This document shows positions 10,453-15,635 of a stretch of 36,219 nucleotides of DNA, piece by piece (the stretch's first letter is position 1; every line of letters starts with the position of its first letter). The stretch is from a virus (Duplodnaviria; Heunggongvirae; Uroviricota; Caudoviricetes), in IMG/VR virus record IMGVR_UViG_2879765931_000005. One strand, written 5' to 3'. Made by a program: the position numbers and the translations under genes. Under the pieces are notes generated by a model that worked only from the letters and a program-made list of their open reading frames with translations, searched no databases and was not told the DNA's origin.

Positions 10453-10668
10453 ATGAAATCCATGGACAAAATTTCAACGGGCATTGCCTACGGCACCTCC
10501 GCAGGCAGTGCTGGCTACTGGTTTTTACAGTGGCTTGATCAGGTCAGTCCGTCACAGTGGGCTGCGATTGGTGTACTGGGGAGTCTGGTTCTGGGCTTCC
10601 TGACTTATCTGACAAATCTGTACTTCAAAATCAGAGAAGACAAGCGTAAGGCTGCGAGAGGTGAATAA
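10453..10668 (+). CDS. Phage-21-type pinholin (S21 class II holin, dual-start motif MKSM)
   Basis: [81 protein letters not shown]; stop overlaps next ATG. Confidence 0.9.
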
Positions 10669-10766
10669 TGTCGCCATCATTACGGTAAGCGCCCCATCAG
10701 CGACGTCTTGTGAAAATTGTCCTGTCTGGCAACAATCGCGCCCATCTATATTGATGGACACGAACG

Positions 10767-11441
10767 ATGAATTCCCAGACAACAAAAGATATTCCCTGCT
10801 TCCGTTCTTATTTGCCTGATGCCCTGCGTTTAAGATTTGAAGATAAACTGACCATCCGGGCCATCGCTCAGCGTCTGGGTCTCAGTCATTCCACAATACA
10901 TACGCTTTTTCAGCGATTTCTTGCATCCGGTATCGCATGGCCATTGCCCGATTCAGTTTCATTCGCTCAACTTGACGCCATCCTTTATGCCAACAGAAAG
11001 AAGGAATTAACAGAGCCTCAAATCAGAGAAGGCTCATGGCGAAAAGAACGGCGAACCAGCTATAGCCGTGAATTTAAGGTCCGTCTGGCTAAGCAGGCAT
11101 TACAGCCTGGGGCTGTTGTTGCCCGGATCGCCAGAGAACACGATATCAATAATAACCTGCTGTTTAAATGGAAAAGCCAGTACGAGGACGGCTTACTGAG
11201 CGATGATGACATACAGGAATGCATGCCTGTCCCGGTGGCACTGACTGATACGCCGGAGCCGACCAGACCAGTTACAAATCCCTTCTGGCGTAACAAGCAT
11301 GATGAGCGCCCTGAGGGGGCTCCCGGAAACGTCCCACGGTGCGAGCTGCATCTTAAATCAGGTGTGGTAAAACTGTTTGACCCTCTCACTCCGGAACTGT
11401 TACGGGCGCTAATCCGCGAAATGAAAGGGGGTATCCGATGA
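10767..11441 (+). CDS. IS66-family accessory protein TnpA (orf1)
   Basis: 224-aa first ORF of the element with HTH-like N-terminus. Confidence 0.65.
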   Translation: MNSQTTKDIPCFRSYLPDALRLRFEDKLTIRAIAQRLGLSHSTIHTLFQRFLASGIAWPLPDSVSFAQLDAILYANRKKELTEPQIREGSWRKERRTSYSREFKVRLAKQALQPGAVVARIAREHDINNNLLFKWKSQYEDGLLSDDDIQECMPVPVALTDTPEPTRPVTNPFWRNKHDERPEGAPGNVPRCELHLKSGVVKLFDPLTPELLRALIREMKGGIR

Positions 11442-11788
11442 TAACGCTGCCGACCGGTACCAAAATCTGGATCATCGCTGGCATCACAGATATGCGTTGT
11501 GGCTTCAATGGCCTGGCTTCGAAGGTGCAGAACACGCTGAAAGATGACCCGTTCTCCGGGCATATCTTCGTCTTCCGGGGCCGCAGTGGCAAAATGGTGA
11601 AAATACTGTGGGCCGATCGTGACGGGTTATGCCTGTTCACCAAACGTCTGGCCGGTGACCCGGGAAGGGAAAGTGCACCTGACGCCAGCTCAGTTATCCA
11701 TGCTACTGGAGGGGATCGCGTGGCAACATCCCAAACGGACAGAACGGCCTGGCATCCGGATATAACCCGTGATAAAACAAGGGAATGA
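11438..11788 (+). CDS. IS66-family TnpB (orf2)
   Basis: 116 aa MITLPTGTKIWIIAGITDMRCGFNGLA...; overlapping start/stop with neighbours. Confidence 0.75.
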   Translation: MITLPTGTKIWIIAGITDMRCGFNGLASKVQNTLKDDPFSGHIFVFRGRSGKMVKILWADRDGLCLFTKRLAGDPGRESAPDASSVIHATGGDRVATSQTDRTAWHPDITRDKTRE

Positions 11789-12662
11789 ACAATGAACTCC
11801 CCGATGATATTGAGCTGCTTAAAGCCATGTTGCGTAAGCAACAGAGTCGGCTTCGACAGTATGCCTGTCAGGTCGCGGGCTATGAGCAGGAAATTGAACG
11901 GCTGAAAGCGCAACTCGACAGGTTGCGTCGTATGTTGTTCGGCCAGAGTTCAGAGAAAAAGCGTCATAAGCTTGAAAATCAGATCCGACAGGCAGAAAAA
12001 CGACTGTCGGAACTGGAAAACCGGCTGAACACAGCCAGAAATCTTCTGGAAGATGCATCGTCAGTCACAGATTCACCTGACACCAGTCCCCCGTCAGAAA
12101 ACCCGATCGCCAGTAAGCCTGAATTCCCGGGACGAAAATCTTCACGAAAACCGCTGCCGGCAGAACTTCCCCGGGAGACACATCGCCTTCTGCCTGCTGA
12201 AACCAGTTGCCCGGCCTGTGGAGGTGTTCTGAAAGAAATGGGGGAAACAATCTCAGAGCAACTGGATATCATTAATACCGCCTTTAAAGTTATCGAAACC
12301 ATACGTCCCAAACTGGCCTGTAGCCGGTGTGATGTCATCGTTCAGGCACCACTTCCTCCTAAACCGATCGAACGCGGTTATGCCAGTGCAGGGTTACTTG
12401 CACGGATCCTGGTCAGCAAATATATGGAACATATCCCTTTATATCGCCAGTCAGAAATATACGCGCGACAGGGCGTGGAGCTGAGCCGTAATACCATGGT
12501 GCGCTGGGTATCAGAAATGGCAGACAAACTCCGTCCTCTGTATATAGCGCTGAATGACTATGTTCTGGAGGCAGGAAAGGTGCACGCAGATGACACTCTG
12601 AGGTAGCCTGAGTTTAACGGACACTCCTTCCTGAAATAGAATGGCATCAGAAGGAGCTAATA

Positions 12663-12965: not shown

Positions 12966-13000
12966 TCGAACAATGGCGACAACAATTTCCCATTGAAGCG

Positions 13001-13819
13001 ATGTGTCAGGTATTTGGTGTATCCAGGAGCGGTTATTACAACTGGGTACAGCATGAACCCTCAGACAGAAAACAAAGTGATGAGCGGCTAAAACTGGAGA
13101 TTAAGGTGGCACATATCCGCACTCGCGAAACATATGGAACCCGGCGGCTCCAGACGGAGCTGGCAGAGAATGGCATCATCGTTGGTCGTGACCGACTGGC
13201 ACGTCTTCGTAAGGAGCTGAGGCTACGCTGTAAGCAGAAACGCAAGTTCAGAGCGACTACGAACCCGAACCACAATCTGCCAGTTGCGCCAAATCTGCTG
13301 AACCAGACGTTCGCTCCTACAGCACCAAATCAAGTCTGGGTGGCGGACCTGACGTATGTTGCCACACAGGAAGGATGGTTGTACCTCGCTGGCATCAAAG
13401 ATGTTTATACGTGCGAAATTGTCGGCTACGCCATGGGAGAGCGCATGACAAAAGAGCTGACAGGTAAAGCCCTGTTTATGGCGCTCAGGAGCCAGCGCCC
13501 ACCTGCCGGGCTAATCCACCACTCTGATCGAGGTTCACAGTACTGCGCATACGATTACCGGGTCATACAGGAGCAGTCTGGTCTGAAAACATCAATGTCG
13601 CGTAAAGGTAACTGTTACGACAATGCTCCGATGGAAAGCTTCTGGGGAACGCTGAAAAATGAGAGCCTGAGCCACTATCGTTTTAATAACCGGGATGAAG
13701 CCATCTCAGTAATACGGGAATACATTGAGATTTTCTACAATCGTCAGCGTCGTCACTCTCGTCTGGGGAATATCTCCCCGGCAGCCTTCAGGGAAAAATA
13801 TCATCAGATGGCTGCTTAA
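13001..13819 (+). CDS. IS600 OrfB (DDE transposase domain, first-ATG coordinates)
   Basis: 272 aa with IS3-family DDE region (HSDRGSQYC...). Confidence 0.9.
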   Translation: MCQVFGVSRSGYYNWVQHEPSDRKQSDERLKLEIKVAHIRTRETYGTRRLQTELAENGIIVGRDRLARLRKELRLRCKQKRKFRATTNPNHNLPVAPNLLNQTFAPTAPNQVWVADLTYVATQEGWLYLAGIKDVYTCEIVGYAMGERMTKELTGKALFMALRSQRPPAGLIHHSDRGSQYCAYDYRVIQEQSGLKTSMSRKGNCYDNAPMESFWGTLKNESLSHYRFNNRDEAISVIREYIEIFYNRQRRHSRLGNISPAAFREKYHQMAA

Positions 13820-15170
13820 AAAAAGAACAAATGGTAGTGTCCGCTATTGCCAGTACACCTCACTCCGGTGAAAGTACTGGCCCCGGGGAACGGAAAGACG
13901 AAAACGGGTCGTCTGTGGGTATACGTCAGGGATGATCGTAATGCGGGTTCATCCCTGCCGGCAGCCGTCTGGTTCGCGTATTCGGCAGATCGCAAAGGAG
14001 AACATCCGCAGCTCCACCTGGCAAAGTATCAGGGCGTACTGCAGGCTGATGCCTATGCAGGTTATAACGTACTGTACGAAACGGGCCGGGTGAAGGAAGC
14101 CGGGTGCCTGGCCCACGCCCGCCGAAAAACCCATGACGAGGATGTGCGCCGTCCGACAGAAATGACTCAGGAAGCGCTCAGACGGATAGCAGAGTTATAC
14201 GACATAGAAGCGGAGATACGTGGCAGTCCGGCAGAGGAACGGCTTGCAGTCAGAAAAGCCAGAAGCGTCCAGTTGATGCAATCGTTGTACGACTGGATAC
14301 AGTTGCAGAGGAAAACGCTGTCGAAACATGCGGAGATGGCGAAGGCGTTCGACTATATCCTGAATCACTGGAATGCGCTGAACGAGTTCTGTCGTGACGG
14401 CTGGGTGGAAATAGACAACAACATCGGTGAAAACGCGTTACGATCGGTGGCGGTTGGAAGAAAAAATTATCTCTTTTTCGGCTCAGACAAGGGAGGAGAA
14501 AGTGCGGCGATCATCTACAGTCTGCTGGTCACCTGCAAACAGAACGAAGTGGAGCCGGAGGACTGGTTGCGCGAAGTGATCGAGAAGCTCAATGACTGGC
14601 CGTCGAACCAAGTGCATGAACTGCTGCCCTGGAACTTCTCGTCTGTAAAATAATCCTTACGCTACGTACTTCTCGGGGCGCTTACTCATTACGCAAGGCT
14701 GTTGCAGTTGCTATTGGTGGTGGGGCTATTGCCATAGCGTCTGTGCTCATCACTGGCCCAGGTGGTAACGATGGTCTGGAAGGTGTCAGCTACATACCAT
14801 ACAAAGATATCGTTGGCGTATGGACTGTATGCCACGGACACACCGGAAAAGACATCATGCTCGGTAAAACGTATACCGAAGCAGAATGCAAAGCCCTCCT
14901 GAATAAAGACCTTGCCACTGTCGCCAGACAAATTAACCCGTACATCAAAGTCGATATACCGGAAACAACGCGCGGCGCTCTTTACTCGTTCGTTTACAAC
15001 GTGGGCGCTGGCAATTTCAGAACATCGATGCTTCTTCGCAAAATAAACCAGGGCGATATCAAAGGCGCATGTGACCAGCTACGTCGCTGGACATATGCTG
15101 GAGGTAAGCAATGGAAAGGGCTGATGACCCGTCGTGAGATTGAGCGTGAAGTCTGTTTGTGGGGGCAGCA

Positions 15171-15635
15171 ATGAGCAGAGTCACCGCGATTATCTCCGCT
15201 CTGGTTATCTGCATCATCGTCTGCCTGTCATGGGCTGTTAATCATTACCGTGATAACGCCATTACCTACAAAGAGCAGCGCGACAAAAACGCAAGAGAAC
15301 TGAAGCTGGCGAACGCAACCATTATTGACATGCAGCAGAGACAGCGTGATGTTAATGCACTCGATGCTAAATACACGAAGGAGTTAGCTGATGCGAAAGC
15401 TGAAAATGAAACTCTGCGCGCTGATGTTGCCGCTGGTCGTCGTCGGTTGCACATCAAAGCAGTCTGTCAGTCAGTGCGTGAAGCCACCACCGCCTCCGGC
15501 GTGGATAATGCAACCAGCCCCCGACTGGCAGACACCGCTGAACGGGATTATTTCACCCTCAGAGAGCGGCTGATGACGATGCAGATGCAACTGGAAGGGG
15601 CACAGGAGTATATCCGCACTCAGTGCATTAAGTAG
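15171..15635 (+). CDS. Rz-type i-spanin
   Basis: [26 protein letters not shown]... N-terminal TM then coiled-coil; ATG overlaps endolysin stop. Confidence 0.85.
15391..15573 (+). CDS. Rz1-type o-spanin (lipoprotein) embedded in +1 frame of Rz
   Basis: [24 protein letters not shown]... lipobox VVGC, proline-rich mature part. Confidence 0.85.

Follow-up and report, generated by a model that had tools for sequence, protein, structure and literature searches.

A nested IS600–ISSfl3 insertion in the SAR endolysin gene of a Shigella-type cryptic prophage remnant

The DNA described here is IMG/VR record IMGVR_UViG_2879765931_000005, a stretch of 36,219 bp that we refer to as a whole as the window. 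It is the serU-side remnant of a cryptic prophage of Shigella (S. flexneri-type), with an ipaH effector gene among its contents. Within its lysis cassette the gene for a signal-arrest-release (SAR) endolysin is interrupted by an IS66-family insertion sequence (IS), and that element is in turn interrupted by IS600. An earlier note on this DNA had described such a nesting; it is borne out, and the outer element can be named as ISSfl3. Junctions, repeats and open reading frames (ORFs) were computed by script on the raw sequence.

The endolysin gene begins with the ATG at 10668–10670 and keeps 17 nt of coding sequence before an insert of 4,001 bp (10685–14685). The distance of 17 bp after the ATG given in the earlier note is right as a number if the A of this codon is taken as the first base. 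The insert ends in perfect terminal inverted repeats of 11 bp (11/11, GTAAGCGCCCC; left repeat 10685–10695, right repeat 14675–14685), and the octamer TCATTACG stands on both sides of it, with no further copy in the window when both strands are counted. At fixed boundaries an 8-mer would match by chance with a probability of 4^-8, or ~1.5e-5, and the 4.0-kb insertion with an intact 8-bp duplication stands as first described. The insertion lies at codons 4–6 of an R21/RrrD-type SAR endolysin gene, and the stop codon that closes the 5' stub is supplied in frame by the IS end (CGG TAA). Excision in silico of both elements and of one copy of each duplication yields a 498-nt ORF encoding an endolysin of 165 aa. 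The restored protein matches Pfam Phage_lysozyme over its full length (E=6.6e-45) and is ~97% identical to RrrD (4zpu; 5 of 165 residues differ) and to R21 (3hde; full-length match). The catalytic triad E35, D44 and T50 is present in the spacing E-X8-D-X5-T, the canonical SAR endolysin motif (PMC9239132), the N-terminus forms a Gly/Ala-rich predicted SAR segment, and a pinholin gene of the S21 family lies directly upstream.

The insertion places 4 kb of IS DNA between the endolysin body and its start codon and ribosome-binding site. Upstream of the body the reading frame opens only at 14620, and up to the GTG at 14743 (residue 23) it offers no ATG, GTG or TTG, only near-cognate codons. The endolysin is therefore presumably null. 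The gene calls of the chromosome CP026871.1 contain a 173-aa 'lysozyme' that begins at an ATC codon in the right end of ISSfl3 (window 14653–15174; 12869–13390 in locus L007); this call is an annotation artefact, and what it covers is a pseudogene truncated at its 5' end. Against their Pfam profiles the holin, Rz and Rz1 genes are full length, in agreement with the earlier statement that holin and spanins are intact. A scan of 9600–15800 for promoters and terminators gave counts not above those in shuffled sequence and is uninformative on polarity.

The inner element is an IS600 of 1,264 bp with the termini TGAGGT...ACCTCA. It interrupts tnpC of ISSfl3 at a point equivalent to position 75 (of 284) in the Pfam DDE profile of TnpC and is bordered by a CTC duplication, so that the split of tnpC by IS600 and the 3-bp repeat are both as previously reported. 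Its size, TG...CA termini, orfA/orfB organization and 3-bp duplication are those of the IS3 family. Its orfA product matches HTH_Tnp_1 and its orfB product rve, both with IS3-family OrfA/OrfB matches in Pfam and NCBIfam, and it is 99% identical to RefSeq-annotated IS600 copies in a megablast search of complete E. coli genomes. A programmed -1 frameshift fusing orfA and orfB is presumed here solely from the RefSeq annotation of these 99%-identical copies. Matched duplications border each of the three complete IS600 copies in the window (CTC/CTC, AAG/AAG and ATG/ATG). Removal of the nested copy in silico restores an ISSfl3 of 2,734 bp with an uninterrupted TnpC of 533 aa, which matches the NCBIfam model transpos_IS66 from end to end (E=1.3e-139).

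The assignment of the outer element rests on three consecutive genes, tnpA-tnpB-tnpC, whose products match IS66_access_TnpA (E=4.9e-85), IS66_TnpB and transpos_IS66 in NCBIfam, with agreement from Pfam. Leucine-zipper, zinc-finger, DDE_Tnp_IS66 and C-terminal domains are present in TnpC. The inverted repeats begin with GTAAGCG, and other ISSfl3 copies are likewise bordered by 8-bp duplications (GATAATGC and ATTCAAAT). The restored 2,734 bp are 98.8–99.8% identical to RefSeq-named ISSfl3 copies, again by megablast against complete E. coli genomes. The copy in the window lacks the marks of an autonomous element, as its tnpC is split by IS600 and its TnpB, owing to a 20-bp deletion, matches NF033819 at positions 1–63 of 90 only; it is a defective member of the IS66 family and not a non-member. 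Its TnpC is probably dead. Since its inverted repeats are intact, it could move only with TnpC from other copies.

The tnpB gene in the window lacks 20 bp that are present in ISSfl3 copies of 2,754 bp, a difference that the earlier note does not mention. The junction lies near 11644 between imperfect CGYCTGG repeats, and the deletion shifts the frame after about residue 71 to give a product of 116 aa. In the deletion allele the stop of tnpB and the ATG of tnpC overlap (ATGA, 11785–11788), whereas the long form has ~20 nt between the two genes. We considered the deletion as a private third lesion of the locus and rejected this, as the exact 116-aa product occurs in 3,360 collection blocks; it stands beside intact TnpC at at least five chromosomal loci per genome. 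The deletion is thus a circulating allele, the common multi-copy chromosomal form in Shigella. The undeleted long form is found on plasmids (pINV-type) of S. flexneri, S. boydii and S. dysenteriae, from which full-length TnpB could be supplied in trans. With low probability, the 2,734-bp allele is a form that needs TnpB in trans, or has altered activity, and that spread through the chromosome. The ISSfl3 alleles at the endolysin locus are mosaic between strains (window 10685–12598 compared with L006, L008, L009 and L010), differing by single-nucleotide polymorphisms and the 20-bp indel, and the variants match those of other ISSfl3 copies, pointing to gene conversion between copies. No simple history emerged when the TnpB state (115 or 116 aa) was set against the long or short form of the locus: the states are incongruent, the alleles mosaic and the comparison is confounded by gene conversion. 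In two inverted ISSfl3 copies elsewhere, the right flanks are swapped between L014/L016 (CP026765.1) and L019/L021 (CP026788.1), consistent with a large chromosomal inversion by recombination between two ISSfl3 copies. A literature search returned nothing specific on ISSfl3, the 'ipaH island' or the function of IS679/IS66 TnpB.

Table 1. Features and junctions of the nested insertion and of the surrounding prophage remnant, in window coordinates.
Feature	Position	Strand	Remarks
IS3-family element	start of window
mtfA, then tRNA-Ser(cga)	3767–3856 (tRNA)
IS1 in prophage integrase	4277–5044		flanked by TTTTTTTC
Gene of unknown function, hok/sok, DUF968, RusA, Q			after integrase
hok/sok toxin-antitoxin locus	6775–7100		Rfam sok/CssrC; HOK_GEF ORF ~6888–7100
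Four tRNA genes (Met-CAT, Lys-TTT, Thr-TGT, Gly-TCC)	9851–10160	+	between Q and holin
S21-type pinholin gene, intact	10453–10668	+	71 aa; Pfam Phage_holin_2_1 E=1.4e-35, positions 1–63/64
5' stub of SAR endolysin gene	10668–10684	+	MSPSLR, then TAA; sequence, script
Left TCATTACG target duplication	10677–10684	.	single-copy, uninterrupted in L004 (E1V33) and L017
ISSfl3, left part	10685–12598	+	tnpA 10767–11441, tnpB 11438–11788, tnpC 5' part from 11785
Left CTC duplication made by IS600	12596–12598	.
IS600, apparently intact	12599–13862	+	1,264 bp; orfA 12663–12965, orfB 13001–13819
Right CTC duplication	13863–13865	.
ISSfl3, right part	13863–14685	+	tnpC 3' part, stop 14651–14653; Pfam DDE_Tnp_IS66 positions 75–283/284 and DDE_Tnp_IS66_C
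Right TCATTACG target duplication	14686–14693	.	also in independent ERR832466 contig L024
Endolysin body, codons 4–165	14686–15174	+	SAR domain and E35/D44/T50 kept; no canonical start before GTG 14743
Rz i-spanin gene, intact	15171–15635	+	154 aa; Pfam Phage_lysis positions 1–125/126
Rz1 o-spanin gene within Rz, intact	15391–15573	+	60 aa; Pfam Rz1 positions 1–40/41
HNH, TerS, TerL, portal, protease-capsid fusion			downstream of lysis cassette
IS600 in head-completion gene	22188–23450	-
IS600 in tail-terminator gene	24318–25581
Sheath, tube, tape-measure genes			after tail terminator
IS1 abutting 5'-truncated IS600 fragment	30939–31706 (IS1), 31707–32609 (IS600)
Tail-fibre fragment			between IS600 fragment and ipaH
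Full-length IpaH-family type III secretion system effector gene	33266–34909	-	LRR and NEL E3 ligase; NCBIfam IpaH_Shig E=1.2e-170; best PDB match 3cvr
Shigella small RNA CssrB and IS009 RNA	35037–35216 and 35973–36176		beyond ipaH
Junction, R/ISSfl3 left			GCCATCATTACGGTAAGCGCC
Junction, tnpC/IS600			GATGACACTCTGAGGTAGCC
Junction, ISSfl3/R right			GGGGCGCTTACTCATTACGCAAGG
Deletion junction			hybrid IS600/ATGAGCGTG

A 22-mer spanning the end of the holin gene and the start of the endolysin gene was found at three loci in a scan of species-representative genomes. In Escherichia sp. E1V33 the endolysin target site is uninterrupted (ATGTCGCCATCATTACGCAAGG) and the octamer is present in single copy. 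The other two loci, in S. flexneri SFBU1023 and a genome labelled 'E. coli ECMA0423', have the left ISSfl3 junction of the window, which recurs in three more assemblies. An exact look-up of Rz led to two further assemblies and to the other end of the insert: a contig of run ERR832466 starts with 30 bp of the right end of ISSfl3, followed by TCATTACG and the endolysin body, and a contig of GCA_013976445.1 breaks off precisely at the IS boundary. Among complete chromosomes, the full nested structure was found only in CP026871.1, which is 100% identical to window 1785–22606 and, being identical, was not counted as independent evidence.

Four of the five other genomes compared (SFBU1023, LR213455.1, AMJV01000092.1 and CP004056.1; loci L006, L008, L009 and L010) carry a single hybrid IS600 at this place, with the CTC left flank of the first copy and the ATG right flank of the third. 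The nested IS600 (from 12599) recombined with the direct copy that cuts the tail-terminator gene (24318–25581), and 11,719 bp were lost, namely window 13863–24317 and one IS600. The deletion removed the right part of ISSfl3, the endolysin body, Rz/Rz1, the terminase/packaging genes and the portal and capsid/head genes. The window retains the undeleted ancestral stage, and the later deletion used its nested IS600 as substrate.

Taken together, the data make it highly probable that two successive ordinary transpositions took place in a cryptic prophage of Shigella (S. flexneri-type). ISSfl3 inserted at codons 4–6 of the endolysin gene with duplication of 8 bp, and IS600 then inserted into tnpC with duplication of 3 bp. 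The intact target duplications around both elements make these two simple insertions, as the earlier note had proposed. The inactivation of the endolysin would be neutral erosion amid the genome-wide IS expansion of Shigella rather than a selected disarming of the prophage, and recombination of the nested IS600 with a second, direct IS600 later produced the 11,719-bp deletion seen in most related strains.

The earlier suggestion that loss of the endolysin was a plausible domestication step finds no specific support in the rest of the prophage, which has at least six IS lesions, this one included, and no recognized early genes. Eight IS copies or fragments, including the IS3-family element at the start of the window, make up ~28% of its length. 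No repressor, cro, N, O, P or replication genes were recognized between the integrase and Q (window 5711–8962); the early region appears to be deleted, and the late operon may therefore not be inducible. The IS1 in the integrase is absent from the five other genomes compared (L005, L006, L008, L009 and L010) and is thus a recent arrival in the lineage of the window, and other strains that lack it have an uninterrupted, longer integrase gene (281–341 aa). Nothing sets the endolysin lesion apart from the other lesions of the prophage. The window is Shigella chromosomal DNA, with Rfam matches to CssrB and sok/CssrC. The nearest phages are phi467 and vB_EcoM-606R7 (~91% identity) and phiP27, and a search for a repeat of the serU 3'-end that would mark the right prophage boundary found none of 12 bp or more. 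The ipaH gene is the likely reason why the prophage remnant is retained.

The strongest competitor to neutral erosion, although an unlikely one, is that selection favoured losing the endolysin, as this would prevent lysis and help to lock in the ipaH-carrying prophage. The effector gene does lie in the same prophage (33266–34909), and several points weigh against neutrality, which we infer from the state of the prophage as a whole. SAR endolysins can be released and lyse cells slowly without a holin (PMC9239132), so that their loss could plausibly benefit the host. CP026788.1 holds a paralogous S21/R21 cassette (L017, 8830–9260; 95% identical) in which IS600 cuts the holin gene and a second, independent ISSfl3 follows codon 98 of the endolysin gene, the TCATTACG site being empty. 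Two ISSfl3 insertions in endolysin paralogues exceed what a naive uniform model gives and could reflect selection or target preference. Weak near-cognate initiation at CTG 14629 may also leave some endolysin expression. If ISSfl3 did knock out two paralogous R21-type SAR endolysins of S. flexneri independently, whether through a target preference or through selection against the only lysis protein capable of killing in the absence of a holin, such knock-outs would help to fix effector-carrying prophages in place. We nevertheless hold this to be a minority reading of low probability, since it is post hoc and sets two events against the 49 ISSfl3 entries of a published survey table (see below). 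The late operon may already be silent in a prophage with no recognizable early or replication region and many other IS lesions, and the pinholin, itself lethal once triggered, is intact here. Nor do the retained genes look like a domesticated module conserved under constraint: L006, L008, L009 and L010 have lost the spanins and the endolysin body, and the paralogous holin is cut. Divergence between strains at the locus is ~0.05–0.3%, so fewer than 1–2 substitutions are expected over holin and Rz; intact ORFs of 216 bp and 465 bp are then expected without selection, and their intactness carries no signal of constraint.

The same pair of insertions could instead mean that something in the sequence or structure of R21-type endolysin genes attracts ISSfl3, a reading that we regard as improbable. 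The two events are independent and hit 95%-identical genes, and both left flanks end in ACG (TCATTACG and AAACAACG). However, they lie 276 bp apart within the gene, the other duplications (GATAATGC, ATTCAAAT) show no clear shared consensus, and the sample is very small.

As to the order of events, a further alternative is that IS600 entered ISSfl3 elsewhere and that the 4-kb composite then moved into the endolysin gene with TnpC supplied in trans. Such a movement is conceivable mechanically, as the inverted repeats of ISSfl3 are intact, the 8-bp duplication is perfect and related genomes hold ISSfl3 copies with an intact 533-aa TnpC. The distribution of the inner junction makes it very improbable. 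An exact look-up of the 273-aa N-terminal fragment of TnpC created by the IS600 junction returned six contigs. Four of them (L007–L010) show this prophage context, and the three complete chromosomes among these have the fragment at a single place each, always this locus; L011, which also has it, is only 1.3 kb long and offers no flanking context. The ISSfl3::IS600 junction of this locus is absent from 5,426 E. coli genomes. Four apparent full-length matches in that collection were rejected, each consisting of two pieces 480–600 bp apart with a different insertion point. Likewise, in the ISSfl3::IS600 of pINV of enteroinvasive E. coli (EIEC), IS600 lies ~480 bp further into tnpC (at ~1.3 kb, compared with ~0.8 kb here). 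Presence of the fragment at this locus only, and its absence from the 5,426 E. coli genomes, favour a sequence in which ISSfl3 arrived first and IS600 then hit it in place.

A misjoining of contigs across repeated IS copies, for which the window offers an occasion with its four IS600 copies or fragments and for which the sole complete chromosome with the full structure, CP026871.1, is no independent check because it is identical to the window, can be set aside almost entirely: a chimeric join, the refutation envisaged at the outset, would not leave matched duplications at every complete IS600 copy, and two ORFs are restored exactly, the left junction recurs in at least five other assemblies and the right one in a short-read contig of the independent run ERR832466.

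The locus is a clean worked example of erosion by insertion, nested insertion and inter-IS deletion with an intermediate stage preserved, although it carries little weight alone. It is useful for correcting the annotation of the 173-aa 'lysozyme' and could serve as a lineage marker. Two wider questions arise from it, namely whether lysis genes are preferential casualties of IS elements in Shigella prophages and how the ISSfl3 allele with truncated TnpB became the dominant chromosomal form.

All components of the locus are annotated and well known. The gene order and gene families of the cassette are those of phage 21 and DLP12 (S21, R21/RrrD, Rz/Rz1), the difference being that here 4 kb of IS DNA stand between the endolysin and its start codon, in a prophage that is defective. 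The location of the IpaH LRR-NEL effector gene, distal in a degraded prophage, is likewise that of other prophage-borne ipaH genes. Interrupted ISSfl3 copies on pINV and on chromosomes of EIEC and Shigella share the 98.8–99.8% identity, the inverted repeats and the 8-bp duplications. The interrupting element is IS600 in L001, ISEc11 in L002 and another IS3-family element in L015 and L017, while the copies in L014 and L016 abut fragments of IS600 or ISSfl3; nested or abutting ISSfl3 is common at other loci. The pINV ISSfl3::IS600 differs from the present one in its position in tnpC and in the host gene, which here is a prophage endolysin gene. Shigella chromosomes carry 229–348 IS insertions, and ISSfl3 is among the 12 IS types detected in S. 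flexneri (Hawkey et al., 2020; PMC7373316). The ISMapper table of that 343-genome S. flexneri survey, as far as this table goes, has 49 ISSfl3 entries, with coordinates on an IS-free reference that do not map to this locus. The expansion of IS1 and IS600, inactivation of genes by simple insertion, and later deletions and inversions between IS copies have all been described for the IS-driven decay of Shigella genomes (Hawkey et al., 2020, PMC7373316; Seferbekova et al., 2021, PMC8072062). The locus shows no material difference from these accounts, and the process is the already known, textbook decay of the Shigella genome.

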